The notes below the pieces were generated by a model. It was not told the DNA's origin, ran no database searches, and saw only the letters and a list, made by a program, of their open reading frames with translations. A stretch of 40,000 bases of DNA, from assembly GCF_049340305.1 (NCBI RefSeq), contig NZ_JBMPOU010000001.1:631511-671510 (forward strand), given 5' to 3'. The translations under genes and the position numbers were made by a program. Below, piece after piece: positions 4,286 to 31,474 of the stretch (the first letter of the stretch is position 1; the number at the start of each line of letters is the position of its first letter). The stretch comes from Undibacterium sp. Ji22W. GTDB taxonomy: Bacteria > Pseudomonadota > Gammaproteobacteria > Burkholderiales > Burkholderiaceae_D.

Positions 4286-4372
4286 ACGCCGACATTTTCT
4301 GACATTGCTTTGGGGCAGGATTAGTCCCAAAAAAGTATCCTTGTACAGAATCTGGATACCGTATCCAGATGC

Positions 4373-4431
4373 AAAATCCCGATTCGAATAGCGAGATTAA
4401 TTCTTGTGTATTCGATTCGGGATTTTTTTTC
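4373..4431. terminator. Rho-independent terminator between convergent genes
   Basis: Arms ATCCCGATTCGAATA (4376-4390) and TATTCGATTCGGGAT (4409-4423) pair at 14 of 15 positions. The hairpin is followed by T7-8 (4424-4430) and preceded by AAAA. Confidence 0.55.
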
Positions 4432-4434
4432 GCG

Positions 4435-5766: not shown

Positions 5767-6029
5767 ACAGCTTCTCCTGTCACGATATACATGTCTTTGA
5801 CACACAAAGTTTGACAAGCCAATTGATGTGGCTGACCATTAATGCTGACCCTACATTCTTGGCAAACGCCCATCCCGCATAAAGGTGCACGCGGCATGCC
5901 AGTCACCGAGACTCGGGTATTTGTGCAACCGCAACGTGCTAAAGCGGCTGCAACGCTGATGCCCGGTTCAACCTGATGGGCTGTGCCGTTGATGATCAGG
6001 CTTAGGGTGGGACGATTAGATGATTTCAT
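5763..6029 (-). CDS. Small (2Fe-2S)-binding subunit (gamma-like)
   Basis: 88 aa with Cys motifs (ARCGCTNTRVS, APLCGMGVCQECRV). It sits between the two flavoprotein genes, as in the LhpBEF / HcnABC / opine oxidase families. Confidence 0.7.
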   Translation of the reverse strand: MKSSNRPTLSLIINGTAHQVEPGISVAAALARCGCTNTRVSVTGMPRAPLCGMGVCQECRVSINGQPHQLACQTLCVKDMYIVTGEAV

Positions 6030-6100
6030 TTTGTATGCGCTGATGAATCGTGTTTGATCGTGGCTGATCGCGTTTGATCATATTAATGATGCAAAAAGTT

Positions 6101-7270: not shown

Positions 7271-7279
7271 TGACTCCCA

Positions 7280-8257: not shown

Positions 8258-8614
8258 GCGTTCGCTCCAGTCTGCAGAATATAAATCATTAGAAAAATGG
8301 TAAAGGAAAGTGTAGCGAAGCCAGCGATGGCTTGTCTTGCCGATTTCTGCTTTATCGCATGCAGATTTCGGCATAGTTAAATTACATACTGAATCTGGTA
8401 AGGGATTTGTTTGAGGTCGCCATGTATTTCTTCGCCTAATCGACACTTGAAAGAGTCTTGAGTTGTTTTTCTGTAGAATCACGGAACCAAACGCTAGGGA
8501 TTGCTTCCAAGCTTGTTCTGTTTTTACTTGCTGAACAGTACTTGCTGTGACAGAAATGGCGCAAACGCCAAGCATAGTTTCTTAAAATATTTTTACTTGA
8601 AGAAAGAATAAACC

Positions 8615-9643: not shown

Positions 9644-9664
9644 TTTTGTAAATTAAATTGCCCG

Positions 9665-9709
9665 CAAAAAAATCAGTGACCAGTGACAATGTTCTGGTCA
9701 CTTATTTTT
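9665..9709. terminator. Bidirectional hairpin terminator between ltaE and the convergent gene
   Basis: AGTGACCAG (9675-9683) pairs with CTGGTCACT (9694-9702). The stem is flanked by an A-run upstream and TATTTTT downstream. Confidence 0.5.
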
Positions 9710-10889
9710 AAACGACTAAATCGACTTGCTGCATCGTCTTAGCTTGCCCATCTTCGGTCAGCCACAGACCCGTTGAACGTATTTGTCCATCGCTATGGTT
9801 ATTGCCGCTTTTGAGTTCAAACGGCGTTTCTACTTGCCCAAGAAACAGTGCGCCGACATTGGCTTGTTTAAGTGATTGCAATTGATCTTTGCCGGCCGCG
9901 TCTTTGGTCCAGACTTTCAGTTTGCTATAAATCGCATCGTTCTCATCTATCCAATGATTGCCATCACTGTCATACGCGGCTAATTCAGAAAACCCATTGC
10001 CTGTGCCGGGTCCAAACAATTCAGTGCCATCATTGATTTTGCCATCACTATTTTTATCAAAAGCCAAAAAACCTGCGCCTTTTACAAAAGAAATTGAATC
10101 TTTTTTGCCGTCTGCATTCAAATCAAATTCAAATTTTTGTGACGTTAATTGCGCACTATTGCCTGAAAAATTTAAGGTGAGCGGATCAACTTTCTTGCCA
10201 TCGCCTTTGCGAATTTGCGTTTGACTCTCTTCGTGATAACTACGATTTAATGCGAAGCTTAGATCAAATTTAATCTGTTTATTGTCGGCTGTGGTGATTG
10301 TGCCGTTCGCCTGAAACTTCGTCTGCTCCGTTTCTGTGTAGCTATGATGCACATCAATTTCTACACCCCAACCAGCATTCGGGCGAGGATTTTTTGGCGC
10401 GACCTCCACTGAGTTTTGCGTTGCTGTATTTGGTGTCGTAGTTGGTCGAGGTGCGCTAACATTGGTGGCCGAATTGTCTTGCAGATCACTTGACTTGAGC
10501 GAGTCAATTTTACGTCCGGTTAACAGCTCAATCAAATAGCGAATTACCATCATACGCGGATCATTATCAACATCATCTTGAATACGATCAACCGCACTTG
10601 CTGCATCCGCGGCATTAGCCGCATCGCTGCTTCTTGCTTGCGCTTGTGCTTGCAATGCAGCGTCAGATAATTGGACTAGGTCGAAGGGAAGTAAAGACCG
10701 AGCCTCACGCGACATATCAGCACTTTTGGTTTGACCAACAGCCGCGCCAGCATCACGCAGCCGCGCTTCCATGCCTTCAAAATCAGGACGTTGACTACCC
10801 ACCCATGCACGCGTTTTTTCCTGGGTTTCTAATTTCTGTGTGGCGACATAACTGGCCTGCAGTTGTATATCTGAACTTGCGATTTTCAT
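9708..10889 (-). CDS. Hypothetical protein with EF-hand-like DxDxDG calcium-binding motifs
   Basis: 393-aa ORF. The C-terminal half carries DLNADGKKD, DKNSDGKINDGTELFG and DSDGNHWIDENDAIY. I recognise no signal peptide and cannot name the family. Confidence 0.6.
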   Translation of the reverse strand: MKIASSDIQLQASYVATQKLETQEKTRAWVGSQRPDFEGMEARLRDAGAAVGQTKSADMSREARSLLPFDLVQLSDAALQAQAQARSSDAANAADAASAVDRIQDDVDNDPRMMVIRYLIELLTGRKIDSLKSSDLQDNSATNVSAPRPTTTPNTATQNSVEVAPKNPRPNAGWGVEIDVHHSYTETEQTKFQANGTITTADNKQIKFDLSFALNRSYHEESQTQIRKGDGKKVDPLTLNFSGNSAQLTSQKFEFDLNADGKKDSISFVKGAGFLAFDKNSDGKINDGTELFGPGTGNGFSELAAYDSDGNHWIDENDAIYSKLKVWTKDAAGKDQLQSLKQANVGALFLGQVETPFELKSGNNHSDGQIRSTGLWLTEDGQAKTMQQVDLVV

Positions 10890-11463
10890 TTGTGTATCCC
10901 ATCAAAATGGCACATCGTCATACTCACGATTTTTCATCATTATTTCTATAAAAGTATCCGCATCATTCGATGCGAATGGAGCATGAAGCTATGCGTAAAA
11001 ATCGGCTGGCAAGTACATTGTTAAACATCGTCTTACGTCTTTTTTAGCGCGCAGAGACCACTTGGATGATGCGGAAACGCAGAGAACGTCGGTATGTGTG
11101 TGAACTGATTAGGCTGAACTGAATTAGGCCGAACTAAATTAGGCATTAATGAGCGACAAACATCACTCAAAGACAACAGACAAAATCAGCAAAAAAATAC
11201 CAAGCTATTCCCAGTGTAAACCGCAACCATTCCGATCAGAATGCCAGTCAGTATGGATCAAAATTTTTTGAAAAATGCTTTGCGAGAGTACTTAAAAAAG
11301 TTTGCTCGCCATGATGGGTATCGGTCGATTTTATGAAAGCTTGAAATTTCACTTAGACAGAAAGATGTTAAGGGGATGCAAAAATGGATGGTTTCCTATC
11401 AGTTTCATTTTAGGTAAAACAATGTACTTGTGAGCCATAAATACGCATCGTCGAATATTTTCC

Positions 11464-11492
11464 TTGACAATAGACGACTGGTCTAATATTGT
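11464..11492 (+). promoter_or_regulatory. Putative nemR promoter (TTGACA-17-TATTGT) with an embedded operator palindrome TAGACGACTGGTCTA (11471-11485)
   Basis: A consensus -35 and a plausible -10 at 17-nt spacing. The TAGAC/GTCTA inverted repeat lies in the spacer, and the same motif recurs upstream of nemA. Confidence 0.5.
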
Positions 11493-11498
11493 ATTGCC

Positions 11499-12116
11499 AT
11501 GCAAACCTCAAACTCTACTCATTCCACCCAGCACGACACTCGTGAGCGCATTTTGGCGACCGGTCAGTCGTTGATTTTGGGAAAAGGTTTTTCCGCATTG
11601 GGTTTGAGTGAAATTTTGGGTGCGGCAGCGGTGCCTAAGGGCTCTTTTTATCATTACTTCCAATCCAAAGAAGGATTTGGGGTGGCAATGTTGGAGCGGT
11701 ATTTTGCCGACTATCAGCCGCGCCTGCAGGAGCTTTTGTTGGAAGGTGACTTGCCAGCACGCGAGCGTGTGATCCGATATTTCGCGAGTTGGCAACAGAA
11801 GGCCGAGCAATCCGCTTGTCAGACGTTATGTCTGGCGGTGAAGTTGGCGGCTGAAGTTTCTGATTTGTCCGAGCCAATGCGCTTGTCTTTGACGGTAGGG
11901 ATGCAGGGTATTACTCGCAAGCTGGCAGAGGCCTTGCGGCAAGTGCAGCTAGACGGTGATTTATCCGCGGATTGCAATATTGATGAGTTAGCAGAATTTT
12001 TGTATGCCACTTGGGTTGGGGCGTCTTTATTAAGCAAGGTGAATTTGCATTTGCGGCCATTGGACATCGCGATGCAACAGACTAAGACTTTGCTGCAACC
12101 GACTAACGCGAGGTAA
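11499..12116 (+). CDS. nemR: TetR-family repressor, NemR-like
   Basis: Recalled similarity to E. coli NemR: HDTRERILATG, VPKGSFYHYFQSKEGFGVAMLERYF, KLAAEVSDLSEPMR. It lies upstream of nemA, as in E. coli. Confidence 0.75.
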   Translation: MQTSNSTHSTQHDTRERILATGQSLILGKGFSALGLSEILGAAAVPKGSFYHYFQSKEGFGVAMLERYFADYQPRLQELLLEGDLPARERVIRYFASWQQKAEQSACQTLCLAVKLAAEVSDLSEPMRLSLTVGMQGITRKLAEALRQVQLDGDLSADCNIDELAEFLYATWVGASLLSKVNLHLRPLDIAMQQTKTLLQPTNAR

Positions 12117-12252
12117 GTGTGATGATTCGGGATAAAGTTGGTGAATGATAAGTTGCAAATGTGTTGAAACGCTCTAAAGCAGCAGAGTAAAAATAAGCGG
12201 TAAAGAGCGGAAATACTCGATAGGCATACGCCTATTTTTTTGAAATACAATC

Positions 12253-12267
12253 TAGACGACCGGTCTA
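12253..12267 (+). promoter_or_regulatory. Second copy of the operator palindrome (TAGACGACCGGTCTA) upstream of nemA
   Basis: Matches the 11471-11485 motif at 14 of 15 positions, followed by the same AAT. It sits 40 nt before the nemA ATG. Confidence 0.5.
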
Positions 12268-12306
12268 ATTTATTGAGGACTGGTTTAATTCAATGAAAGA
12301 AATAGT

Positions 12307-13416
12307 ATGTTTGAACAATTATTAGCCCCTGTTAAAGTCGGTTCAACCGAATTAGCCAATCGCGTCGTGATGGCACCATTAACCCGTTCGCGTGCAGCGC
12401 AACCTGGTGATATTCCACATGCCTTAAACGTCGAATATTACGCGCAGCGCGCCAGTGCTGGTTTGATTGTCACTGAAGCAAGCCAGATTTCGCGTCAAGG
12501 TCAGGGCTATGCGTGGACGCCCGGTATCTACACTGATGCGCAAGAAGCAGGCTGGAAAACTGTGGTCGATGCTGTGCATGCAAAACAAGGAAAAATCGCG
12601 CTGCAACTGTGGCATGTGGGTCGTATTTCACATAATCTTTTGCAAGAAAATGGCGCAGCGCCAGTCTCGGCGTCGGCGATTACGGCAGAAAATTCTCAAT
12701 GCTTTGTGATTCAAGAAGATGGCACGCCAGCGAACGTGCAAACAGCACAGCCGCGCGCTCTGGAATTGGCAGAAATTCCAGGCATCGTTGAGCAATATCG
12801 TCAAGCTGCACATCGTGCAAAGCGTGTCGGTTTTGATTTTGTGGAAGTGCATGGCGCGAACGGCTATTTGTTGCAGCAATTCCTTGCTACCAATAGTAAT
12901 CAACGCGACGACATTTATGGCGGCAGTATTGAAAACCGTGCACGGTTGATGCTGGAAGCCGTGGATGCAGCGATCCGTGAAATGGGCGCAGAACGCGTTG
13001 GAGTGCGCTTATCACCTAACTTTGTGGCGCATGGCATCGCTGATGCAGAAGCAGAAGCAAGTGCATTGTATTTGGCACGTGAATTCACCAAGCGCGGCAT
13101 TGCTTATCTGCACATTGCCGAGCCAGACTGGGTAGGCGGCGCTGAAATGAGTGCGGAATTTCGTCAGCAATTGCGTGCAGCATTTAGCGGCACATTAATT
13201 TGCTGTGGTGGTTATAGCGCGGAAGAAGCCAATACATTGATTGCCAGCGGATTAGCCGATGCCGTTGCCTTTGGTCGTCCTTATATTGCGAATCCGGATT
13301 TGGTCGAACGATTTGCCGCTGGCGCCGATCTCACTACACCAGATCGTACGACTTTCTATGGCGGCGCAGAGAAAGGATATACGGATTATCCCTTCATGCA
13401 GAAAACCGCAGCGTAA
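12307..13416 (+). CDS. nemA: N-ethylmaleimide reductase / alkene reductase (Old Yellow Enzyme family)
   Basis: Collinear recalled similarity to E. coli NemA: MAPLTRSRA, EYYAQRASAGLI, LQLWHVGRISH, PRALELAEIPGIV, HGANGYLLQQFL, GIAYLHIAEPDW, AFGRPYIANPDLV. Confidence 0.88.
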   Translation: MFEQLLAPVKVGSTELANRVVMAPLTRSRAAQPGDIPHALNVEYYAQRASAGLIVTEASQISRQGQGYAWTPGIYTDAQEAGWKTVVDAVHAKQGKIALQLWHVGRISHNLLQENGAAPVSASAITAENSQCFVIQEDGTPANVQTAQPRALELAEIPGIVEQYRQAAHRAKRVGFDFVEVHGANGYLLQQFLATNSNQRDDIYGGSIENRARLMLEAVDAAIREMGAERVGVRLSPNFVAHGIADAEAEASALYLAREFTKRGIAYLHIAEPDWVGGAEMSAEFRQQLRAAFSGTLICCGGYSAEEANTLIASGLADAVAFGRPYIANPDLVERFAAGADLTTPDRTTFYGGAEKGYTDYPFMQKTAA

Positions 13417-13594
13417 TAAGGCGGAGTAATTGCGGGGAGTAATAAGCTAGGGTCAGTGAGCTTAGCTATTTTCAGATTGTTTATTGGAATTTTTTGATTG
13501 CTGCTGTTTCGCTTGTTGAATTTGACATCGCGAACACAGCACAATCAATGAGATGTGTAGAATACGATTTTCAGTAACTCTACTTTTAATCCTC

Positions 13595-14221
13595 ATGTTA
13601 ACCATCTTCGGTAAATCTAGCTCAATTAATGTGCGCAAAGTCTTATGGACTTGTGTTGAAATTGGTATCCCATTTGAATTAACTGAGGTCGGTTCGGGCA
13701 CATCAAATCCGGCAACAACGCCAGAATTCATGGCGCTTAATCCAAACGCGATGGTGCCGGTGATTCAACATGAAGGCCAGACCTTGTGGGAATCAAATTC
13801 CATTTGCCGTTATCTGGCAACCCGTTTTGAACGGTGTGATTTGTTGCCACAAGAAGCGATGGCGCGGGCACAAATAGAGAAATGGATGGATTGGCAGGCC
13901 ACAGAATTAAATAATTCCTGGCGCTATGCCTTCATGGCCACCGTGCGCAAAAGCCCAGCGCATAGCGATGTAGCTGCACTAGAGCATGGTGTGCGTGAAT
14001 GGAATCGCCATATGCAAATTTTAGATCAGCAATTGCAAGGCACGGATGCCTATGTGAATGGTGCTGAGTTCTCTCTGGCTGATATCGTGCTGGGTCTGTC
14101 ACTCAATCGCTGGCGTTCCGCACCAATTGCACATGCAGATTTACCTGCGCTCGCAAGGTATTTCGGTCGCTTGTGTGAGCGTCCGGGATTTTTGCAATAT
14201 GGCGCGAATGGTATTCCCTAA
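13595..14221 (+). CDS. gstB: Glutathione S-transferase, GstB-like
   Basis: From the ATG at 13595, MLTIFGKSSSINVRKVLW parallels the E. coli GstB N-terminus (MITLWGRNNSTNVKKVLL). Later matches include LWESNSICRYLA and EKWMDWQ. The ORF-track start at 13553 adds 14 hydrophobic aa that GSTs are not expected to have. Confidence 0.8.
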   Translation: MLTIFGKSSSINVRKVLWTCVEIGIPFELTEVGSGTSNPATTPEFMALNPNAMVPVIQHEGQTLWESNSICRYLATRFERCDLLPQEAMARAQIEKWMDWQATELNNSWRYAFMATVRKSPAHSDVAALEHGVREWNRHMQILDQQLQGTDAYVNGAEFSLADIVLGLSLNRWRSAPIAHADLPALARYFGRLCERPGFLQYGANGIP

Positions 14222-14335
14222 ATTTATTTGAATATTCTGACGATCTTTTAGTTTGATTGTGAAAGTGAATGCGGCAAATGCGCAAATTTGCGGGATAATT
14301 CGTGCCTTATTCATTCGCTTCAATAAATAAATATT

Positions 14336-14992
14336 ATGAGCTTCGCTACTTGGTTTTCTTTTTTCTGTGCTGCCTGCCTGATCGCTATCTCCCCCGGTTC
14401 TGGGGCGATTTTGTCGATGTCCCATGGACTGGCTTATGGTGTGAAGCGTGCTAGTGTGACGATATTGGGATTGCAGTTTGGCTTGCTTTTAGTCTTAATT
14501 GTCGCTGGTGCAGGCGTTGGTTCTTTATTGCTCGCATCTGAAACTGCATTTAGCATCGTCAAAGTATTAGGTGCCTTGTATTTGATTTATCTGGGAGTCA
14601 CACAATTTTTCAGTAAGCCCCAGACGAGCTCAAATATGTCCGCAGTAGGCACTCAGGATACTGCGCAGGTACCGAGTTTTCGCCGCCGCGTCCTCACAGG
14701 TTTTTTGACGAACGCCAGCAATCCTAAAGGGATTGTTTTTATGGTCGCGGTTTTGCCTAACTTCATTAATAGTCATGCCGCTTTGCTGCCCCAGTTGATT
14801 ATTCTCGCTGTGACCATGGTGGTGGTAGACGCCAGCGTAATGCATAGTTATGCTTTATTGGCATCATCATTGCAAAATCTAATGCGCGACGTCAAAGCGC
14901 AGCGTATTCAAAATCGACTGTTTGGTGCGGTCTTGATGTTGGTCGGTGCGAGTTTATTTTTCGTTAAGCGTGAAACTAGCGTTGTAAATTGA
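14336..14992 (+). CDS. LysE/RhtB-family amino-acid exporter
   Basis: 218 aa and polytopic, with an N-terminus typical of the family (FFCAACLIAISPGSGAILSMSHGLAYG) and the NPKGIVF motif. Confidence 0.8.
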   Translation: MSFATWFSFFCAACLIAISPGSGAILSMSHGLAYGVKRASVTILGLQFGLLLVLIVAGAGVGSLLLASETAFSIVKVLGALYLIYLGVTQFFSKPQTSSNMSAVGTQDTAQVPSFRRRVLTGFLTNASNPKGIVFMVAVLPNFINSHAALLPQLIILAVTMVVVDASVMHSYALLASSLQNLMRDVKAQRIQNRLFGAVLMLVGASLFFVKRETSVVN

Positions 14993-21165: not shown

Positions 21166-22863
<1,698 letters not shown>

Positions 22864-23525: not shown

Positions 23526-24530
23526 TTAGAGGCTATCAAGCGGACTGCGTACACCACCAGCAATCTTTAAAATATGCGTATAAATCATGGTGGTGCTCAC
23601 ATCATTGTGTCCAAGCAAATCTTGAACCGTACGAATATCGCAACCACTTTGCAATAAGTGGGTGGCAAAGCTGTGCCTCAGGGTATGCGGTGAGGCAGGT
23701 TTAAAACAGGCGTTTTTCTTTAATGCGAGCTGAAACGCACGACGAAATGTTTGCGGATAAAGGTGATGCCGACGGACTATACGAGAACGAGGATCGGTAG
23801 AGACAGACTGTTGAGGAAAGACCCAAAACCAAGCCCAACTCTGATCAGCACGCGGATATTTTTTTGCAAGTGCAAATGGCATGTCGACACCGGCAAGCTC
23901 ATTTCGTCTATCCATTTCCCAGATCGTATGGCAACGCGCCAATTGTTCTTTTAAGGCGGGAACTAAGCTCTGAGGTTCTTTTAAGGCGGGAACTAAGCTC
24001 TGAGGAAGCATCACAACGCGATCTTTGAAACCCTTACCATCACGAATCAAGATCGCACCATGATCAAATTCAATATCTTTTACTCTCAATCGGGCAGCTT
24101 CCATGATGCGCATACCGGTTCCATACAAGAGTCTTGCAAATAGGCCAAAGGTCGTATTGCTGGAGTCGAGCACTTGAATGGTTTGTTGAACCTCTAATTT
24201 GGTAAGCACAACTGGTAAATGCTTTTTTTCCTTGGGGCGACCAATGTCGTTTAACCAAGGCAATTCGATTTTAAGCACTTCTTTATACAAATAGAGAATT
24301 GCACTTAAGGCTTGACGGTGCGTCGAAGGCGAAACCTTTCGCTCGACAACCAGCATAGACAAAAATGCTTCAACCTCCGGCCCTCCCATGTCCTTTGGAT
24401 GTCGAAGACCCGACCAACGAATAAAAAAACGGATCCAGTAAACATAATTTTTCTCTGTCGCAAGACTGTAATGTTTATAACGTATGCTCTCGCGCACTTG
24501 ATCCAACAAACGAGGTACTTTCGCTTCCAT
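23526..24530 (-). CDS. intI: Integron integrase IntI (tyrosine recombinase)
   Basis: Collinear with recalled IntI1: [99 protein letters not shown]. It also carries the IntI-specific insert [39 protein letters not shown]. It is divergent from the cassette array. Confidence 0.93.
23946..24006. repeat. Perfect 30-bp tandem duplication inside intI ([10 protein letters not shown] x2)
   Basis: TTCTTTTAAGGCGGGAACTAAGCTCTGAGG occurs at 23947-23976 and again at 23977-24006. The duplication is in frame. Confidence 0.95.
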
Positions 24531-24548
24531 CTAGGTTCCCTTGTTATA

Positions 24549-24564
24549 CTGTATATTTATACAG
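24549..24564. promoter_or_regulatory. LexA box (SOS box) overlapping the putative intI promoter
   Basis: CTGTATATTTATACAG fits CTGT-N8-ACAG perfectly, 19 nt upstream of the intI ATG. On the minus strand, TTTACT-N18-TATAAA places the -10 inside the box. Confidence 0.8.
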
Positions 24565-24574
24565 TATAACAAAA

Positions 24575-24645
24575 AAGAAGCAGTAAACATAAGCCTTTTG
24601 AGAAAGTTGAAACAGTGTTGCTCAATTTGTACGTTTGTGTTAACG
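24575..24645 (+). other. attI region with its core site GTTAACG (crossover G|TT at 24639/24640)
   Basis: It lies between intI and the first cassette ORF. TTTGT repeats are followed by GTTAAC. The extent is approximate. Confidence 0.45.
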
Positions 24646-24679
24646 TCGGTTTTTTCACTTTAAAACAAGTTAAATCTCA

Positions 24680-25117
24680 ATGAGTATGCCCAAGCCCAAA
24701 CGTATCGAAGAGATCACGGTATCCGATTTGAAGTTACATCGTTGGTGCTACTTCCACGACGATGAGGCTGGGTTCGATGCGTTTGAATATGTTATTCCAG
24801 ATACACATGAGCAGTTTGACGAGAACGTAATCGAGCTTGAACTAGCTGTCTTTAAATTTGATGGTGACAGAGAGTATTTCGGGATGTATGACGGCTCAAA
24901 GTCTTATAGCATTTTTCTAAATAATGAGTGGTTCTATTTTTGGCATGGAGTTCGCAAGCCGACAGAGTCGGAAATAGCCCATCTCAAAGATACGCTAATG
25001 GCGTCCGATTTAACGTTTCCGATTTCAGCACGAGCCTATTGGTCTGATCGGACCGAGTTATTTCGCGGACTTCGCTATTATGACGAACGGGGTGTCGAGG
25101 TTGAACTTGAGATTTAA
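24680..25117 (+). CDS. Cassette 1 ORF, unknown function (145 aa, acidic, aromatic-rich, cytoplasmic)
   Basis: Sole long ORF in cassette 24640-25198. Its stop codon lies inside the attC R'' box. No family recognised. Confidence 0.65.
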   Translation: MSMPKPKRIEEITVSDLKLHRWCYFHDDEAGFDAFEYVIPDTHEQFDENVIELELAVFKFDGDREYFGMYDGSKSYSIFLNNEWFYFWHGVRKPTESEIAHLKDTLMASDLTFPISARAYWSDRTELFRGLRYYDERGVEVELEI

Positions 25118-25204
25118 CTTGGCGGTCGGCGAGGAATCGCCGCGACCGACTTCTATACTATTTTATTTATTGGTGGCGGCGATCCCGGCACCTCAACGTT
25201 AAGC
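25112..25204 (+). repeat. attC 1 (93 bp; R'' ATTTAAC, R' GTTAAGC)
   Basis: The arms GGAATCGCCGCGACC and GGTGGCGGCGATCC are complementary. The 3' end CACCTCAACGTTAAGC is shared with other attC sites in the array. Confidence 0.75.
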
Positions 25205-25214
25205 ATCAAATTAA

Positions 25215-25475
25215 ATGAGACCTTTAGAGCGAATAGACGAAATATCAAATCTCATTAAAGAGATTTGGAATGGACTTCCAAGCATGAGGTATATGCAGTT
25301 AATCTACGTTTTGCAATCGAGTTTTTCAGAGAAGAATAAAAATATTGGAAGAATTGAGGCACGTGAGGATGGAACTAACTCCAGAATTGGATTCGATTTA
25401 TTTCATATTGAAGACGACGAGTTAAAACTTTTCCTCGAAAGCTTTCTATTTGATCTTAAAACAAACAATGCTTAA
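25215..25475 (+). CDS. Cassette 2 ORF, unknown function (86 aa)
   Basis: Sole ORF in cassette 25199-25553. Its stop codon lies inside R''. Confidence 0.6.
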   Translation: MRPLERIDEISNLIKEIWNGLPSMRYMQLIYVLQSSFSEKNKNIGRIEAREDGTNSRIGFDLFHIEDDELKLFLESFLFDLKTNNA

Positions 25476-25559
25476 CAGGTCAAGCGATGGAGAATCGCCA
25501 ATGACTATCTCACTGAAATTTTTGACCGTCGTGGCGATCTCGTCATTTCGGCGTTAAAC
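25470..25559 (+). repeat. attC 2 (90 bp; R'' GCTTAAC, R' GTTAAAC)
   Basis: R'' is the exact complement of this cassette's 5' boundary GTTAAGC. The arms GAGAATCGCCA and TGGCGATCTC pair. The 3' end GTCATTTCGGCGTTAAAC is identical to that of attC 3. Confidence 0.85.
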
Positions 25560-25570
25560 ATCAACAGCAA

Positions 25571-26068
25571 ATGCGCACAATCTCACTATTAATTGCAGTT
25601 CTTTTGGGCGTTCTAACTTTTTCAGTAACGTGCTTTGCCGCGCAAGCGCTGACTCCCCAAAAGGCGCTTGTTGCGAAGCTATATAAAAATTATGCATTCG
25701 AAGCTATACGCGATGAATCCGACTTAGATGGTGAATTTTTAGATAGACCCCGCAACGTATTACTTTCTTACTTGACGCCAAGTCTGGCGAAATTGGTTTT
25801 AAAAGATAGAAAATGCGCGGCTGACACACACGAAATTTGCAACTTGGACTTTATGCCACTTTGGGATAGCCAGGATCCGACTGGTGCCATTGTCCGGATT
25901 TTGCCAACGAGTAAAAACGATGAGGTTAATGTCCAATTGAGGTACGGGTCAGAAACACGAACACTCACTTACTTTCTTACACTCACTAATTTAGGTTGGC
26001 GAATTCGGGACATCGCTTATGAAAACGGACGAAAATCTCTGGTTGATATCCTCGGGCGAGCAAAATGA
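25571..26068 (+). CDS. Cassette 3 ORF, exported protein of unknown function (165 aa)
   Basis: Signal peptide MRTISLLIAVLLGVLTFSVTCFAAQA. The motif CNLDFMPLWDSQDP reminds me of DUF3828-type periplasmic proteins, but this is memory only and unverified. Confidence 0.65.
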   Translation: MRTISLLIAVLLGVLTFSVTCFAAQALTPQKALVAKLYKNYAFEAIRDESDLDGEFLDRPRNVLLSYLTPSLAKLVLKDRKCAADTHEICNLDFMPLWDSQDPTGAIVRILPTSKNDEVNVQLRYGSETRTLTYFLTLTNLGWRIRDIAYENGRKSLVDILGRAK

Positions 26069-26096
26069 TCGCTGCTTACAATTCTCAGGTATTGAT

Positions 26097-26153
26097 GTTT
26101 AACTCAACAATCGACTGGGACGCGCTGGCGAGCCGGTCATTTCGGCGTTAAAC
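26097..26153 (+). repeat. attC 3 (57 bp; R'' GTTTAAC, R' GTTAAAC)
   Basis: R'' and R' are perfectly complementary. The arms CGACTGG and CCGGTCA pair with bulges. Confidence 0.85.
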
Positions 26154-26167
26154 CTCAAGTTCCACTT

Positions 26168-26551
26168 ATGACATTTCTCCTCAAGCGAATTTTAGCTTTC
26201 CTCCCTGGAGGCATCCTAGTAGCTCTATCGACTATAGCAATTGAGTATGAAGATAAAGAACGCTTGGTTTTGGACTCAGACGGTTGGCTCATCGAGTTTA
26301 ACAAAGCATCGAAGTTAGTGTCTCGATCAGGGACGCTAGCTGCTTCGTTCGGGTCGATTCTGTCTGTTGATGTCGAACATTCCGTCAATGGAAAACGCTT
26401 CGAGTGGTGGGTTCTCAACCTGACACTCCAAGGAGGGAAGAAAATTTTTGTTGGTCGCTCAACTGATAGTGCTGAGGTGTCGATCGCAGCTGCGCATATC
26501 GCAAATGCAGTCAGCAAACGGGTTAGAGCTATTGAAAAGATAGGATTTTGA
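26168..26551 (+). CDS. Cassette 4 ORF, unknown function (127 aa, N-terminal hydrophobic anchor)
   Basis: The + strand ORF has the cassette orientation and fits inside cassette 26148-26654. The hydrophobic segment is LAFLPGGILVALSTIAI. Confidence 0.6.
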   Translation: MTFLLKRILAFLPGGILVALSTIAIEYEDKERLVLDSDGWLIEFNKASKLVSRSGTLAASFGSILSVDVEHSVNGKRFEWWVLNLTLQGGKKIFVGRSTDSAEVSIAAAHIANAVSKRVRAIEKIGF

Positions 26552-26567
26552 TTGGAAGAATATTGAG

Positions 26568-26660
26568 GTTTAACATTACGGTCGTAGGGGAATCGCCAGT
26601 GAGGATTTCTCGCTTTATTAATTTTCTGGTGGCGGTGATCTCGACACCTCTGCATTAGGC
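26568..26660 (+). repeat. attC 4 (93 bp; R'' GTTTAAC, defective R' ATTAGGC)
   Basis: It aligns along its length with attC 1 (GGAATCGCC ... CTGGTGGCGGTGATCTCGACACCT). At the position of the invariant R' G it reads A. Confidence 0.7.
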
Positions 26661-26683
26661 TTTCATACAACCACGGGCTCCCA

Positions 26684-27373
26684 ATGAGACACAGCGAACG
26701 ACATAGAACTCACAGAACTGGCTGGCTACGGGCCGCCGTGTTGGGTGCCAATGATGGGATTGTCTCTACTGCGAGCCTGGTCCTTGGGATAGCGGCTACA
26801 GGCGCCAGCACCAAGATCATTCTCGTTACAGGTGTTGCAAGCCTCGTTGCTGGAGCCATGTCAATGGCAGCAGGCGAATATGTTTCGGTCAGCTCACAGG
26901 CCGACACTGAAGGCGCAGATCTGGATCGAGAAAAAGCTGAACTTGTGGAGAACCCAGCCCAAGAACACGCAGAACTTATGGCGATCTACGTTAAGCGCGG
27001 ACTGGATGAGGCATTGGCATCGAGCGTCGCAACTAAGTTAATGGCGCACGATGCGCTTGCCGCGCATGCACGAGATGAGCTAGGTATCTCAGACACCTTG
27101 GCCGCCAAACCAATCCAGGCAGCGCTCGCCTCTGCGGGCACTTTTGCCGCTGGCGCACTTCTACCGCTGCTAATGGTCTTCGTTTTTCCCGCAGCAGCGC
27201 TTATGTGGGGTCTTGCCGGAAGCTCACTCCTTTTCCTTGCTCTGCTGGGTCTGATTGCCGCACGCGCAGGAGGCTCCCCAATGCTCGTGTCTGTGACGCG
27301 CGTAACATTCTGGGGAGCATTAGCAATGGGACTTACCGCTGGAGTTGGCGCCATCTTTGGAGTGGCAGCATGA
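26684..27373 (+). CDS. Cassette 5 ORF: VIT1/CCC1-family (DUF125) iron/manganese transporter
   Basis: HSERHRTHRTGWLRAAVLGANDGIVSTASLVLG is the family's hallmark N-terminus. It has the cytoplasmic E-rich helix and C-terminal TM bundle. The segment is visibly more GC-rich than neighbouring cassettes. Confidence 0.8.
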   Translation: MRHSERHRTHRTGWLRAAVLGANDGIVSTASLVLGIAATGASTKIILVTGVASLVAGAMSMAAGEYVSVSSQADTEGADLDREKAELVENPAQEHAELMAIYVKRGLDEALASSVATKLMAHDALAAHARDELGISDTLAAKPIQAALASAGTFAAGALLPLLMVFVFPAAALMWGLAGSSLLFLALLGLIAARAGGSPMLVSVTRVTFWGALAMGLTAGVGAIFGVAA

Positions 27374-27434
27374 AGCATTAAACGCGACACCTTTGAGGTA
27401 TATATGTTCTCAACGCCCTCTAGTACGCGCACCA

Positions 27435-27501
27435 GCCTCACCGTAAGTTCGAGTGCGGCCGCAATGCTTCGCATCGCGGCTCCTCAACCTTGGCGTTAAA
27501 C
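27435..27501 (+). repeat. attC 5 (67 bp; R'' GCCTCAC, R' GTTAAAC)
   Basis: R'' complements this cassette's 5' boundary (G)TTAGGC at 6 of 7 positions. There is a central stem GCCGCAATGC/GCATCGCGGC, and the arms AAGTTCGAG and CTCAACCTT pair. Confidence 0.65.
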
Positions 27502-27568
27502 AGCTAAGAATTTTCAGTACCTCACAAATAATGAATGAAATGCGTAGACTTCAAAAGATGAAAAACAA

Positions 27569-28315
27569 ATGAATAAAGTTTTTAGCTTAGGTTTTTTTAT
27601 TGCATTGTTTGTTATTGCAAATGCTTCCGCACTCACCAATGATCAAGAATGTGCTGAGGATATATTTGATATTTCAGCGCGCTACTTAAATCTCAAGAAT
27701 TTTACATATAAATCTAAAAATGGTGTTGTTATCGCGGCCGCATGCAAGGCCTCTCCGACTAATCCCAATTTGATCTTATCCGTCTTTGCATACGATAGTG
27801 CTATCAAAGATGAGAAGAATTTACTGGTAGCTATCATTGATGAAAAAAGAAACCAGATAGTTAGTAGCTACAAGAGTGTGATGAATCAGGACTTCTCGAC
27901 TCAGTTTAGTGAAAACAGCTTCAAGCTTGATACTGGGAGATACCAACTTTCCGATAAAGTGAGAGCATTTGGCGTCAGGTTTGATAATGCAGCAATATCT
28001 AGTTGTGGTGAGGAAGGTGGTCAGAATGATAATCTCACTTTGTTTGTGCAGGAAGGAAAAAAATTGCGTGCTGTTTTTGATATGTACATGTATTGGTATC
28101 GCTTAATTGAAGGAATTCGCTGCAATCCAAATTCTGAGGCAATTATGGAGAATGCCTACCTCACAGGGGCAGTGCAAAGGAACAGTACCAATGGTTTTGC
28201 TGACCTATTGCTTACTGCAAAAATTGATAGAAATCGTGTTGAACATCATTTGCTTCGCTACGATGGAAAGAGTTACCAAACAGGTTCCCAAAAACCTTGG
28301 TGGTTAGGGTATTGA
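27569..28315 (+). CDS. Cassette 6 ORF, secreted protein of unknown function (248 aa)
   Basis: Signal peptide MNKVFSLGFFIALFVIANASA, AT-rich coding and several Cys residues. No family recognised. Confidence 0.65.
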   Translation: MNKVFSLGFFIALFVIANASALTNDQECAEDIFDISARYLNLKNFTYKSKNGVVIAAACKASPTNPNLILSVFAYDSAIKDEKNLLVAIIDEKRNQIVSSYKSVMNQDFSTQFSENSFKLDTGRYQLSDKVRAFGVRFDNAAISSCGEEGGQNDNLTLFVQEGKKLRAVFDMYMYWYRLIEGIRCNPNSEAIMENAYLTGAVQRNSTNGFADLLLTAKIDRNRVEHHLLRYDGKSYQTGSQKPWWLGY

Positions 28316-28337
28316 GCCATTTAAGAAAGTAGAAGGA

Positions 28338-28391
28338 TGTTTAACTTTCCAATCAACTCGGACGCTGCGCACCTGCTATTTTAACGTTAGA
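28338..28391 (+). repeat. attC 6 (54 bp; R'' GTTTAAC, R' GTTAGAG)
   Basis: R'' exactly complements the cassette's 5' boundary GTTAAAC. The 3' end GCGCACCTGCTATTTTAACGTTAGAG resembles that of attC 8. Internal pairing is weak. Confidence 0.6.
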
Positions 28392-28406
28392 GGTTTAATT
28401 AAGCAC

Positions 28407-28961
28407 ATGGCAAAAATTGAAGTAGGAAAAGGAAGAAGTAAGATTGAGCAAACTAATCATGGTTTGCGAATTACTATCCCGTCTAAAAAGAATTTCTTTT
28501 TAATCGCCTTCATGGGCTTTTGGCTAATGGGTTGGGCATTTGGTGAGGTGTCAGTTTTAAAAGAATTATTAAATCCAAAAGATGGAGCGCCGCAATTTTT
28601 TCTTATTGCGTGGCTTGGTGGCTGGACTGTCGGTGGAGCCTTCGCCATATATGCTTGGCTTTGGAATGTTATGGGGAAAGAAATAGTAGACATAACTTCG
28701 TCAGAGCTAAGTCACATCAAGATTGTTGCTGGGTTTAGTAGAAGTAGTGAATATGCAGTATCTTCAATATCAAAATTAAGGCTGCAACCACAAAACACGT
28801 CGATGTTTGGCTCTAGAAATGGAATGGAGTTTTGGGGTATCACAGGAGGCACTATTGCCTTTGACTACGGACAAAGTACCCATAAATTCGGGGCGCAACT
28901 TGATGAAGCGGAAGCTAGCCATGTTATTGAAGCCATTAAAAACAGGTTCACAAACCTCTAG
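28407..28961 (+). CDS. Cassette 7 ORF, membrane protein of unknown function (184 aa, 2 TM)
   Basis: TM segments FFLIAFMGFWLMGWAFG and FFLIAWLGGWTVGGAFAIYAWLW. The stop codon TAG lies inside R''. Confidence 0.65.
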   Translation: MAKIEVGKGRSKIEQTNHGLRITIPSKKNFFLIAFMGFWLMGWAFGEVSVLKELLNPKDGAPQFFLIAWLGGWTVGGAFAIYAWLWNVMGKEIVDITSSELSHIKIVAGFSRSSEYAVSSISKLRLQPQNTSMFGSRNGMEFWGITGGTIAFDYGQSTHKFGAQLDEAEASHVIEAIKNRFTNL

Positions 28962-29012
28962 CAAGTCGCTCAAGGCCGCTTCGTTGGACAGCCCCTTAGC
29001 TCGGCGTGAGAG
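28956..29012 (+). repeat. attC 7, degenerate (57 bp; R'' CTCTAGC, R' GTGAGAG)
   Basis: R'' complements the cassette's 5' boundary GTTAGAG at 6 of 7 positions. The arms AAGTCGCTCAAGG and CCTTAGCTCGGC partly pair. An alternative or orphan R'-like end TCTTTAACGTTACAC lies at 29034-29048. Confidence 0.45.
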
Positions 29013-29063
29013 TACTCCGTAGTATCCTATTGTTTCTTTAACGTTACACACGAGGAGCTAAAA

Positions 29064-29468
29064 ATGCATGCCTTAAAATTGATAATGATTGTCTCTATTT
29101 TCGTTGGAAGCAGTAACTTAGTTGCTGCAGAAAATAGCGTAGAAAAAGAATTGAGAAAAAATAAGAGTTTGCGTTGTGTTGCTGTTGCAATGGAAGGTAA
29201 AAATTTGATGAAATCAAACGTGATGAGTGCCGATGCGAACTTCTCCCAACAAAATGATACTGTTTTACAAAATCATAAAGAACAACTAAGAACTAATCGC
29301 CCCCAAGGCACTGAAGACGAAATGTCAAACGCGTTATATAGCCTTGCAAAAAATGAGCATAAAGCAATGAATGTTTACATCTCCGAGAATATTAAAGATG
29401 CAAGCGAAGTTGAAAAATTCGCTAAGAAGTTTATATTAAACCGATACAAAACTATCGGATGTCTCTAA
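29064..29468 (+). CDS. Cassette 8 ORF, secreted protein of unknown function (134 aa)
   Basis: A strong RBS (GAGGAG) lies 6 nt upstream. Signal peptide MHALKLIMIVSIFVGSSNLVAAEN. Confidence 0.7.
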   Translation: MHALKLIMIVSIFVGSSNLVAAENSVEKELRKNKSLRCVAVAMEGKNLMKSNVMSADANFSQQNDTVLQNHKEQLRTNRPQGTEDEMSNALYSLAKNEHKAMNVYISENIKDASEVEKFAKKFILNRYKTIGCL

Positions 29469-29507
29469 AGAAAATATTTTCGATGTTTGAAGAAGCAGTA
29501 AATGCGC

Positions 29508-29596
29508 CCTAACTTGACATTCGTTACGGACGCGCGAATTATCTACGCGCTCTATTTTGAAAACTCGTGTGCGCACCTTTCAACTCAACGTTATAC
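29508..29596 (+). repeat. attC 8 (89 bp; R'' CCCTAAC, R' GTTATAC)
   Basis: The 3' end GCGCACCTTTCAACTCAACGTTATAC is of the array's family type. Both R boxes deviate by one position from consensus. Confidence 0.6.
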
Positions 29597-29614
29597 ACAT
29601 ACGGAGAAGATGAT

Positions 29615-29860
29615 TTGGAGACTTACAATTTCCAAGCAAGATGGAAAGAAGAATTGGTTTGTTCAACTCCTGCAAAGTCATTCGTATTGGAATTCCCAAT
29701 AGGTAATCCGACCGTTTACTTTCCAAATGAATGTAGATGGAAGGAAGTGGGGCCGTCATGGGCGACCGAGGACTGGCCTGCTCTGCATGAGCAGCTGCGA
29801 GCCTGGTGTAAGAAAAATAATGTAGAACTTATGATCGATGAGACCGCGAATGTCTATTGA
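29615..29860 (+). CDS. Cassette 9 ORF, unknown function (about 81 aa from TTG; the ORF track gives a GTG at 29567)
   Basis: The frame is open from 29567, but that start lies inside attC 8, which belongs to the previous cassette. The first in-cassette start is TTG at 29615, 8 nt after GGAG. There is no in-frame ATG until near the 3' end. Confidence 0.5.
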   Translation: METYNFQARWKEELVCSTPAKSFVLEFPIGNPTVYFPNECRWKEVGPSWATEDWPALHEQLRAWCKKNNVELMIDETANVY

Positions 29861-29869
29861 CCAGTCGAT

Positions 29870-29954
29870 GCATAACATGACAATCGACCGGACTGGCCCT
29901 GAAGCGGCTCAGTGTTTTATTAATTGGTGGGCGGCCATCCACTCACCGTTGCGT
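29870..29954 (+). repeat. attC 9 (85 bp; R'' GCATAAC, R' GTTGCGT)
   Basis: R'' complements the cassette's 5' boundary GTTATAC at 6 of 7 positions. The 3' arm ATTAATTGGTGGGCGGCCATCCACTCACC aligns with attC 1 and attC 4. Confidence 0.65.
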
Positions 29955-29963
29955 GATGCAAAC

Positions 29964-30314
29964 ATGACTAAATTCATACTCGCCCTTGTCTTTGTAGTTT
30001 GCACCTCATCTGTGTTTGCATGTGAGTCGCCCGATGCCGAATGGTCCATGATCCTTCAGAGCAAAAAACACACTGTGAAAGGGCCCTACACAATAGCTGA
30101 ATTAGAATCAAACAACTTGATCGAAATTCGTGAAACAAAAGAAGTGCTGCCATTTGGGTATATTAATAAATATTGGGTTCAGTTAAAAGCTAGATACTTG
30201 CCTGGTGATCGTTTTTATTTCGTCCATTTTCAAGATGGACGTTTTTTCGTTGAGCGGCATGTACTAGTTAGGAATGATTGTGTGATTGGTGCTTTAATGG
30301 GCGCGATCTCCTAG
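29964..30314 (+). CDS. Cassette 10 ORF, exported protein or lipoprotein of unknown function (116 aa)
   Basis: The ATG at 29964 gives MTKFILALVFVVCTSSVFACESPD, a signal peptide with a lipobox-like FAC. The ORF-track start at 29838 would read through attC 9 and the previous cassette. Confidence 0.65.
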   Translation: MTKFILALVFVVCTSSVFACESPDAEWSMILQSKKHTVKGPYTIAELESNNLIEIRETKEVLPFGYINKYWVQLKARYLPGDRFYFVHFQDGRFFVERHVLVRNDCVIGALMGAIS

Positions 30315-30320
30315 TGCTTT

Positions 30321-30375
30321 ATCTAACATTCGACGATGACGCATGAATGCGTCCCTTCCTAAATTTCAGTGATGG
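30321..30375 (+). repeat. Possible decayed attC 10 (R'' ATCTAAC; no canonical R'; best candidate GTGATGG)
   Basis: A consensus R'' lies 7 nt after the stop, and there is an internal hairpin GACGCA-tgaa-TGCGTC (30338-30353). No GTTRRRY follows. A second R''-like box ATTTAAC lies at 30388-30394. Confidence 0.3.
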
Positions 30376-30418
30376 GCGTGCTGGCCTATTTAACATGACA
30401 TGACATGGCATTTCTTTT

Positions 30419-30796
30419 ATGATTGATTGGCAAATTATCGTCGAGGGAAAATTTCCTTCAGGTTGGGATGAACATAAAGATGGTTGTTGGTTCCCTGACT
30501 TCGGCACCCAAAAATATTTGCTTCCTTACTTTGACGTTGGTGAGCAACCAATTGACGAATATGGCGCGACGCGCTTTGATGTCGATACGATGAAACGCCT
30601 TCGTACCCATCTCAAATGGCAGCGTGATTATTTCGAAGCAAAAGGGGATACATGGGTAATAACGGAGACCGGCGACGGACAATGTGAATCCTATACGCTT
30701 CAACGAGACGTCGTCGTTGGGGTCATTGATAGAACGATTTCAATGGTTGGGATCGCTATTCATTTGAATGGTCAACTTGTGTTTCGGGGTGACTAA
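30419..30796 (+). CDS. Cassette 11 (or second gene of cassette 10) ORF, unknown function (125 aa, cytoplasmic)
   Basis: Only long ORF in this segment, in cassette orientation. The stop codon is embedded in the R''-like ACTAAAC (30792-30798). Confidence 0.6.
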   Translation: MIDWQIIVEGKFPSGWDEHKDGCWFPDFGTQKYLLPYFDVGEQPIDEYGATRFDVDTMKRLRTHLKWQRDYFEAKGDTWVITETGDGQCESYTLQRDVVVGVIDRTISMVGIAIHLNGQLVFRGD

Positions 30797-31126
30797 ACGA
30801 AGATTGATGCCTTCTTGGTACACATCGTATTACCTATGGCAATCGTGACTCCGTTCGGTCAATCCATATCACATTTGGTTTTATGCCCCGCTTGATGGGT
30901 TTACTTCGCACCCGGCAGTAGCTTTCCTGTTGACGCGGGCGGCGCATGTCATTTGCTAGTACCGGTTTCTTAATCAAGCATAAGCTCAACGCGGACTTCC
31001 AAACGATGTGTCAATTCGCTAGTGATTAACAAACATACCTGGTTCAAAGTCGATTATGCTCGCCGGGGCAGCAGCTACAATGACAACTCCTCGCACCTTA
31101 AATCTATCTCTATGGAGAAGCAAGTT

Positions 31127-31474
31127 ATGTACGGTCTTATCGGAAAAATGAAGTGCACACCTGGGCAGCAAGATTACTTGATATCCATTTTGCTAGAAGG
31201 TGTGTCGGGAATGCCGGGTTGTCTTAGTTATGTTGTCGCTAAAGATCCCACTGACGCAGATGCGATATGGATTACAGAAGCATGGACAAGCCAGCAGGCG
31301 CATAAGGATTCACTTTCGCTGCCTTCGGTACAAGCGGCGATCGCCAAGGCACGGCCCATTATTGCCGGATTTGGCGAACGTTTTGAAACGCAACCTGTGG
31401 GTGGCCATGGTCTGGTGGCTGCGGGTGGTGTTGCGAATGGGATTGCAAATGGGATTGCAAATGGGATTTCTTAA
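31127..31474 (+). CDS. Antibiotic-biosynthesis-monooxygenase (ABM/YgiN-like) domain protein
   Basis: From the ATG at 31127 (GGAGAAG 6 nt upstream), MYGLIGKMKCTPGQQDYLISILL ... WITEAWTSQQAHKDSL is typical of ABM domains. The ORF-track start at 31022 is probably an extension. Confidence 0.7.
   Translation: MYGLIGKMKCTPGQQDYLISILLEGVSGMPGCLSYVVAKDPTDADAIWITEAWTSQQAHKDSLSLPSVQAAIAKARPIIAGFGERFETQPVGGHGLVAAGGVANGIANGIANGIS
31430..31468 (+). repeat. 12-bp tandem repeat x3 (ATTGCAAATGGG) encoding the (GIAN)3 C-terminal tail
   Basis: GTTGCGAATGGG ATTGCAAATGGG ATTGCAAATGGG ATT. Confidence 0.85.

Follow-up and report, generated by a model that had tools for sequence, protein, structure and literature searches.

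A groESL-linked cassette array in Undibacterium sp. Ji22W with the features of a sedentary chromosomal integron

The integrase, the cassettes and their borders

We analysed a stretch of 40,000 nucleotides (nt) from Undibacterium sp. Ji22W (contig NZ_JBMPOU010000001.1; hereafter the window), in which a run of small open reading frames (ORFs) lies beside a gene for an integron integrase (IntI). In integrons, the SOS-induced IntI shuffles gene cassettes between attC sites and the attI site, and expression depends on the position of a cassette relative to attI. Eleven co-oriented ORFs of 81-248 amino acids (aa), here numbered C1 to C11, were found on the + strand 3' of intI, separated by attC-like sites, and make up an array of 11 cassettes in about 6.4 kb (Table 1). 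All eleven were present where a first-pass annotation of this DNA had placed them, and its reading of the region as an integron cassette array was borne out by the IntI domains and IntI-specific patch of the recombinase, by the paired R'' and R' cores and by cassettes recurring elsewhere with core-bounded identity.

Table 1. Features of the integron locus, with positions in the window; L numbers denote loci used for comparison.
Feature	Position	Strand	Description	Observation
groEL	21166-22818	-	Followed by groES, then the divergently oriented tyrosine recombinase
intI	23526-24530	-	Integron integrase, 334 aa	Pfam Phage_integrase 3.3e-38, Phage_int_SAM_4 2.5e-27
Palindrome	24541-24572		Perfect palindrome with LexA box (TACTGTATATTTATACAGTA, 24547-24566)	Inverted repeat 15+15 nt, 100% complementary
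attI/C1 junction	24669-24675	+	Core GTTAAAT	97.2% identity to L135 begins exactly here
C1	24680-25117	+	145 aa, acidic, predicted cytoplasmic	Rare family, so far seen in cassette arrays only
attC1	25112-25204	+	R'' ATTTAAC, R' GTTAAGC	L135 identity ends at 25199
C2	25215-25475	+	86 aa, acidic, least certain gene	Shuffle p=0.028; no homologue found
attC2	25470-25559	+	GCTTAAC ... GTTAAAC	Repeat family D1
C3	25571-26068	+	165 aa, predicted secreted (signal peptide), no family	Singleton 90% cluster
attC3	26097-26153	+	GTTTAAC ... GTTAAAC, 57 nt	R boxes pair in unconstrained fold
C4	26168-26551	+	127 aa, predicted N-terminal membrane anchor and soluble domain of about 100 aa, no family	Singleton 90% cluster
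attC4	26568-26660	+	R' mutated to ATTAGGC (G>A at crossover base)	Equivalent L136 junction GTTAGGC
C5	26684-27373	+	229 aa, VIT1/CCC1 Fe/Mn transporter	PF01988 4.6e-65, 219.9 bits vs 28.1 gathering
attC5	27377-27501	+	ATTAAAC ... GTTAAAC, 125 nt	Constrained fold -21.2 kcal/mol, z=-2.4
C6	27569-28315	+	248 aa, predicted secreted, PA3715 family	NCBIfam NF052451 4.9e-31, 107.8 bits vs cutoff 70
attC6	28339-28392	+	GTTTAAC ... GTTAGAG	C7-cassette identity to L044 starts at GTTAGAGG core, 28386
C7	28407-28961	+	184 aa, predicted two-transmembrane inner-membrane protein with cytoplasmic beta-rich domain	Widespread unnamed family
attC7	28956-29049	+	Irregular; R'' CTCTAGC (AAC>AGC)	R'-like cores GTGAGAG (29006-29012), GTTACAC (29043-29049)
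C8	29064-29468	+	134 aa, predicted secreted, Lys-rich, no family	Probably helical, judged from its sequence
attC8	29507-29596	+	CCCTAAC ... GTTATAC	Fold z=-1.95
C9	29615-29860	+	81 aa, TTG start	Widespread 81-aa family
attC9	29870-29954	+	GCATAAC ... GTTGCGT	76-79% identical to attC sites in L029, L044-46
C10	29964-30314	+	116 aa, predicted signal peptide or possible lipoprotein (VFA|C), no family
attC10	30321-30401	+	R' degenerate (ATGACAT)	ACATG copy number differs in sister strain
C11	30419-30796	+	125 aa, acidic, predicted cytoplasmic, no family, last array ORF	Shuffle p=0.055
Tail	30797-31050		ORF-free, no recognisable attC	Fold z=+0.93
ABM-domain gene	31127-31474	+	Monooxygenase; not a cassette but the first gene of the conserved chromosome past the array	PF03992 4.3e-14

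The recombinase was 63-88% identical to integron integrases of Oxalobacteraceae and Curvibacter (41 IntI relatives found), its IntI-specific patch aligned with that of these relatives, and its catalytic R, HxxR and Y were intact. It also carries a perfect 30-nt in-frame tandem duplication (23946-24005, 10 aa twice), which was missing from all four close relatives compared. The LexA box, which fits the consensus, lies 17-36 nt ahead of the start codon of intI and suggests that the integrase is under SOS control; the palindrome segment is kept in a U. macrobrachii locus (L004, 93.75% identity). A motif resembling the LexA palindrome was seen in the attI region of L044 as well. The attI site adjoins intI and meets the first cassette at a GTT core. 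The array had been said to start at 24640; the junction between attI and the first cassette is instead the GTTAAAT core at 24669, upstream of which the window has attI and L135 has an attC. At the other end, no recognisable attC was found in the 250 nt 3' of C11, and the array stops before about 31050-31113. There the conserved chromosome takes over again: homology to the flank of U. flavidum was weak at first, from about 31055-31075, and clear at 31113, and the ABM-monooxygenase gene was 86% identical in nucleotides to L029.

The groESL-intI side and the ABM side were both kept in other Undibacterium genomes, and none of the eleven cassettes was shared with the 41 IntI-linked loci of other species in tblastn and phmmer searches. 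Conserved flanks without common cassettes mark a sedentary chromosomal integron whose cassettes turn over rapidly. We thus read the region as the cassette array of such an integron, at a fixed site between groESL and the ABM-monooxygenase gene, with a probability of roughly 80%.

The attC sites were judged by the inverse core RYYYAAC and the core GTTRRRY, and their folds were compared with shuffled controls. Cores of this type flanked all ORFs but the last, and the sites formed two sequence families; the attC9 type is common to other Undibacterium-like arrays. Both triplets were intact at attC1, 2, 3, 5, 6, 8 and 9 and point-mutated at attC4 (ATT), attC7 (AGC in R'') and attC10 (ATG). Given these mutated triplets and the lack of a site after C11, the pairs C4+C5, C7+C8 and C10+C11 are probably frozen now and would move together if at all. 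At attC7, about 47 nt of the loop are deleted relative to the L044 copy, the mutated inverse core CTCTAGC creates a TAG stop, and the GTTACAC core is preceded by a stretch resembling the 3' end of an attC; this irregular C7/C8 junction may be what a lost cassette left behind. The R' region of attC10 (ATGACATGACATGG, window 30392) differed from that of L047 by one ACATG unit between strains that are 98.6% identical, the repeat being small, slippage-prone and situated just upstream of C11.

Some of the cassettes were found again in other arrays. The C1 cassette (24669-25199) was 97.2% identical to a segment of L135, exactly from the GTTAAAT core to the next core, and there it sits several cassettes into another groESL-linked array. 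The C7 cassette had a 94.4% identical counterpart in another integron, beside flagellar genes (L044-46), where it is fourth in the array; the identity again opened at a core, GTTAGAGG. For C5, a VIT copy with at least 90% aa identity and only 79% DNA identity occurred in an integron remnant of Noviherbaspirillum autotrophicum (L136, JWJG01000028.1), where the cassette junction reads GTTAGGC rather than the ATTAGGC of the window. Core-bounded recurrence in other arrays was therefore found for C1 and C7, and partly for C5, whose ORF recurs in another integron remnant; C6-C11 recurred as a set only in the near-identical array of a sister strain. Judged by these sequence comparisons, the cassettes are real mobile units. 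The GC (guanine plus cytosine) content of their ORFs ranged from 33.7% (C2) and 34.8% (C8) up to 56.7% (C5), as compared with 45-52% in the flanking chromosomal genes, a spread consistent with heterogeneous origins.

As to the loci compared, L136 (3731-7656) has a 71-aa N-terminal IntI fragment followed by RibD_C, OmdA-like, VIT, glyoxalase and uncharacterised cassettes. L135 (ENA ERZ26695388 contig, 2200-14800) is a groESL-linked array in which intI is apparently degraded to fragments of 72-73% identity; the long series of cassettes there codes for, among others, a GRAM/PH-like protein of 109 aa, a glyoxalase, a thioesterase, an acetyltransferase, MipA and NTP_transf_6, and C1 is the only cassette that it has in common with the window.

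The products encoded by the cassettes

In a dinucleotide shuffle test, the longest ORF per cassette exceeded chance at p<=0.028 in nine of the eleven cassettes (p<=0.011 for C3 and C4), and C9 (0.11) missed significance by ORF length alone, as did C11. The ORFs occupied 58-84% of their own cassettes and kept to one strand throughout (11/11). A 3.8-kb contig of the sister strain, 98.6% identical, carried C5-C11 in the same order. Divergence from this strain was 3.8% in intergenic sequence against about 1% within ORFs, and C6-C11 pooled showed 14 synonymous and 11 non-synonymous differences (pN/pS 0.21), indicating from the comparison of the two strains that these genes, taken together, are under purifying selection. 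The ORFs did not belong to housekeeping families, and the testable ones showed conservation and purifying selection, so that neither outcome named in the first-pass annotation as telling against it was observed. In the public record, C1, C3, C4, C6, C7, C8 and C11 are each called 'hypothetical protein' and C5 is a 'VIT1/CCC1 transporter family protein', whilst C2 and one of C9 and C10 appear to have been left unannotated, to go by the consecutive NCBI accession numbers.

Searches of Pfam, NCBIfam, PADLOC and PHROGs at E<=1 named families for two of the eleven cassettes, C5 (VIT1/CCC1) and C6 (PA3715 family). Ten ORFs had been described as lacking a recognisable family, which stands for nine of them and not for C6, whose NCBIfam family is itself uncharacterised. 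C5 is still the only gene recognisable by function. Its match spans positions 1-213 of the 214 of PF01988 and the expected hydrophobic segments are present, so the profile identifies it as a predicted Fe/Mn exporter of the VIT1/CCC1 type. In its full-length PF01988 match and hydrophobic segments it resembles the MbfA/PfVIT-type Fe2+/Mn2+ transporters; here, however, the gene is a mobile integron cassette and not a core gene. The NF052451 match of C6 covers residues 57-224, above the cutoff, and by this profile C6 is a PA3715-family protein, predicted to be secreted, that differs from the family in adding a signal peptide and in being cassette-borne. A literature search on PA3715 found nothing relevant, and the family has no described function. 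By tblastn, C6 also had a 32.5% match in a record named Pseudomonas phage Y1.

The cellular locations proposed earlier agreed with the hydropathy profiles. In C3, C6, C8 and C10 the N-terminus is hydrophobic and signal-like, and in C4 it forms an anchor; C7 has two transmembrane helices. C1, C2, C9 and C11, which had been taken as cytoplasmic and acid- or aromatic-rich, showed no N-terminal hydrophobic segment, pI values of 4.65-4.91, 10.5-17% aromatic residues and 15-21% Asp+Glu. Seven of the eleven products, the VIT protein included, are thus envelope-targeted. Our best guess is that C3, C8 and C10 are periplasmic proteins or lipoproteins and that C4 is a membrane-anchored single-domain protein. 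For C3, a DUF3828/NTF2-like assignment was considered and dropped, as it had no Pfam support at E<=1.

No relatives of C2, C3, C4, C8, C10 and C11 beyond the sister strain were found in the family-library, viral-contig, plasmid/phage and IntI-linked-locus searches; a 90% relative of C11 is known, and C2 had a weak match to phrog_8499 (7.6e-4) and no Shine-Dalgarno-like sequence. The viral-contig scans also returned nothing for the C7 and C9 family profiles. Only C6, C7 and C9 were matched by tblastn among plasmids and phages, the C7 match being of 31% in Novosphingobium. Sequence searches of the PDB gave nothing significant, whether with single sequences (C2, C3, C6, C11) or with profiles of the C1, C7 and C9 families.

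C7 belongs to a family of 375 clusters at 40-66% identity, from Planctomycetes, Gammaproteobacteria, Bacteroidota, Nitrospirota and Bradyrhizobium, all of them 'hypothetical'. Neither C7 nor 37 members of its family matched a Pfam entry, bPH_2 (PF03703) included (relatives at E<=0.1). The transmembrane helices are conserved and Gly/Trp-rich, with invariant Trp/Gly and Glu47, and the tail reads FDYG...DEAEA. The structural model (pLDDT 74.4) has an N-terminal hairpin, two transmembrane helices, six strands and a C-terminal helix. With moderate confidence, it depicts C7 as an inner-membrane protein in which the N-terminal hairpin and the C-terminal domain would together make up a beta-sandwich on the cytoplasmic side, ending in a helix. 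The top Foldseek match was a COX2-like protein with two transmembrane segments plus a beta-domain (E 0.014), and weaker, non-significant matches (E 0.26-2) were to the PH/PTB-type structures 5yqr, 3u12, 2gjy, 3hqc and 7o4l; the cytoplasmic domain is possibly PH-like. In proteins of the bPH_2 type (YdbS/YdbT), a two-transmembrane hairpin leads into a cytoplasmic beta-sandwich, which a C-terminal helix caps. The C7 model would share this hairpin, sandwich and helix cap, but it has an extra N-terminal beta-hairpin before the transmembrane helices, which the model packs into the sheet. Outside integrons, C7-family genes stand alone in unrelated neighbourhoods, such as that between genes for a glycosylase and an M20 peptidase; no conserved neighbour was found at C7-family loci, and no defence-island context in those examined. 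Our best guess is that C7 acts alone. A relationship between the C7 family and C4 was rejected (hhalign probability 2%), the two having in common only a 'G-x-x-x-D-x-AE + helix' tail.

The C1 family is far rarer. An exhaustive HMMER search of 1.84 billion representatives gave only 16 matches. Two of these, an RHS-type protein of 2179 aa and one of 698 aa, are large repeat proteins and were discarded as repeat-inflated artefacts; about 14 clusters remained, with proteins of about 146 aa. The homologues, 27-44% identical, lie on short contigs with co-oriented small ORFs; in at least one locus, L048, a canonical attC follows the C1 homologue, and L049 has an attC-like sequence. The public annotation starts C1 at the second ATG (24686). 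From an alignment of 14 sequences, AlphaFold gave a mostly-beta model of high confidence (pLDDT 90.8, pTM 0.81), for which Foldseek found no match in the PDB (best E 0.24, TM 0.2) or BFVD, a result consistent with a new fold. Across the 14 members there was no Pfam match and no PDB profile match; the His of their VIPDTHP motif is invariant.

C9 has 97 metagenomic relatives at 37-57% identity. They are all about 81 aa long and share an invariant RWKEEL motif and a WC pair. Its differences from the sister strain concentrate upstream of the TTG at 29615, which supports the 81-aa product, and gene callers elsewhere predict the same 81-aa protein. Among 40 family members there was no Pfam or PDB match; in 80 metagenomic loci there was no conserved neighbour and no adjacent toxin-like gene, a pyruvate carboxylase adjoining one of them. 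Homologues of about 44-45% identity were found by tblastn on Paraburkholderia plasmids, and a TTG start also occurs in a plasmid homologue. In one such plasmid region (L001, NZ_CP155076.1, 637-5737) the homologue adjoins a Tsi6-family ORF (PF18660, 2.4e-6, above cutoff), and the run of small ORFs lies downstream of a DUF3701-type tyrosine recombinase; from its gene content the region looks like a recombinase-associated immunity-gene island.

Operation of the array and competing explanations

If the array works as integrons do, each unit would be a promoterless single ORF followed by its own attC. The LexA box over the intI promoter region indicates that IntI is probably SOS-controlled; the enzyme would excise cassettes at the GTT cores of their attC sites and reinsert them at attI. 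Cassettes near attI would be transcribed from a promoter on the attI side, and the distal ones would be a largely silent stock. Being attI-proximal, C1 is presumably the best expressed of the array. The gene content would be a mixture of accessory functions, each independent and carried by a single gene, with heterogeneous origins (ORF GC 34-57%) and a bias towards the envelope, in which C1, C2, C9 and C11 are most likely binding or inhibitor-type proteins rather than enzymes, a guess made from their sequences.

Several points weigh against this reading or against parts of it. Fold energies were better than those of shuffles for attC1, 5 and 8 only, several of the other sites folding no better than the controls. 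The promoter scan gave no convincing site near attI, and hits within the array were at chance level (10 found, 11.6 expected). Because of the 10-aa duplication in IntI, its current recombination activity is uncertain. The orphan status of C2, C3, C4, C8, C10 and C11 was assigned without a deep homology search and is provisional, the PH-like reading of C7 draws on Foldseek matches that were not significant, and the functional guesses for nine cassettes were based on composition and topology only.

Roles in toxin-antitoxin (TA) systems, immunity or phage defence had been suggested for the cassettes in the first-pass annotation, and neither PADLOC, Pfam, NCBIfam nor the neighbouring genes gave positive evidence of any. 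A screen with PADLOC, which it had proposed, returned zero matches at E<=1 for the ten non-VIT cassettes. This counts against the proposal that at least one cassette is a new single-gene anti-phage gene of the BRiC type, acting by blocking injection or forming a pore at the envelope, or by aborting infection, with C7 and C4 and then C1 as the leading candidates. However, Kieffer et al. (10.1101/2024.07.02.601719) reported more than 5-fold protection against phage by 45 out of 129 mobile-integron cassettes without a known function, with transmembrane helices in about one third of the characterised ones; PADLOC and DefenseFinder predicted no more than 4 of these 129, so that a PADLOC miss is weak evidence. 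A small transmembrane cassette protein is also reported to confer resistance to T4 (10.64898/2026.03.17.712381). The compact single-gene cassettes of the array, without recognisable domains and many with transmembrane helices, resemble BRiCs; C7 in particular is a circulating cassette with conserved Gly/Trp-rich helices and an invariant Glu47. Nevertheless, the array has no PADLOC-model match and the relation to BRiCs is here only a prior, C7-family genes are also found singly in ordinary chromosomal neighbourhoods with no defence-island context seen, and the published base rates come from over-expressed mobile-integron cassettes in E. coli and may not transfer to an environmental betaproteobacterial integron. 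We regard an anti-phage gene in the array as possible, but doubtful.

It is unlikely that C1, C2, C9 and C11 are orphan immunity or inhibitor proteins against interbacterial toxin effectors, stockpiled much as in acquired immunity islands. The Paraburkholderia plasmid, with its C9 homologue beside a Tsi6-family ORF, small ORFs nearby and a DUF3701 recombinase upstream, points in that direction, as do the acidic, aromatic-rich composition of the four proteins and the occurrence of the C1 family so far in cassette arrays only. Nonetheless, no Imm or other immunity family of Pfam was matched even across 40 C9-family and 14 C1-family members, the 80 metagenomic C9 loci showed neither a constant neighbour nor a toxin-like gene alongside, and the invariant His of C1 could equally mean a small enzyme or a metal site. 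TA modules that stabilise the array are very improbable, and effectively refuted for known TA types: such cassettes are common in large chromosomal integrons (mentioned also in 10.64898/2026.03.17.712381), but a single ORF per cassette on one strand leaves no two-gene modules, no cassette was inverted, and no toxin, antitoxin or Imm family was found among the cassettes in Pfam or NCBIfam, nor any TA family in PADLOC. We also considered whether part of the array is decaying, C2 and perhaps C11, C3 and C4 being non-functional and the distal half a non-recombining fossil. C2 gave no homologue in the searches made, is apparently unannotated, lacks a Shine-Dalgarno-like sequence and reached only p=0.028; C11 stood at p=0.055, and C3 and C4 are singleton clusters. 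The mutated triplets of attC4, attC7 and attC10, the missing attC after C11 and the intI duplication would fit as well. Yet all eleven ORFs fill most of their cassettes on one strand, C6-C11 as a pool are under purifying selection, C3 and C4 beat the shuffles, and the absence of relatives for C2, C3, C4 and C11 is provisional, which makes decay quite improbable.

Comparison with known integrons

As a sedentary chromosomal integron, the array is an ordinary member of its class. As in the Vibrio cholerae superintegron and in Xanthomonas, intI is divergent from co-directional, promoterless single-ORF cassettes, a LexA box lies at intI, most cassettes are of unknown function, attC types are common within the lineage, and the site is fixed across the genus with a wholly different cassette content between species. 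It differs in being small (11 cassettes, about 6.4 kb), in having no TA cassettes and in the unique 10-aa duplication of its intI. Unlike the uniform V. cholerae repeats, its attC sites are heterogeneous, falling into two sequence families and including several degenerate cores.

The array had been singled out as a place to seek undescribed functions, and this was reasonable, nearly all of its genes being functionally uncharacterised. Most integron cassettes everywhere are uncharacterised, according to 10.64898/2026.03.17.712381, so that the finding is confirmed but generic. It adds one more chromosomal integron, in Undibacterium (Oxalobacteraceae), a genus with little-studied integrons. Its value for triage lies in C1, C7 and C9: by the searches above they are real, mobile, uncharacterised families, none in Pfam, so that three of the ten unknowns are conserved, horizontally circulating families outside curated libraries, and as compact single genes they are easy to clone. 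A function assigned to C7 (hundreds of clusters) or C9 (about 100 metagenomic loci) would annotate many genomes together. That at least one cassette has a function of an undescribed kind is conceivable but unlikely, with C1 and C7 as concrete candidates; for C7, a new device that excludes phages or senses stress at the level of the envelope could be imagined. The envelope bias of the products (7/11) fits the idea that integrons stockpile surface-interaction functions.

Outside the array, the ABM-domain protein ends in GVANGIANGIANGIS, which is encoded by a 12-nt tandem repeat in three copies (window 31426-31468).

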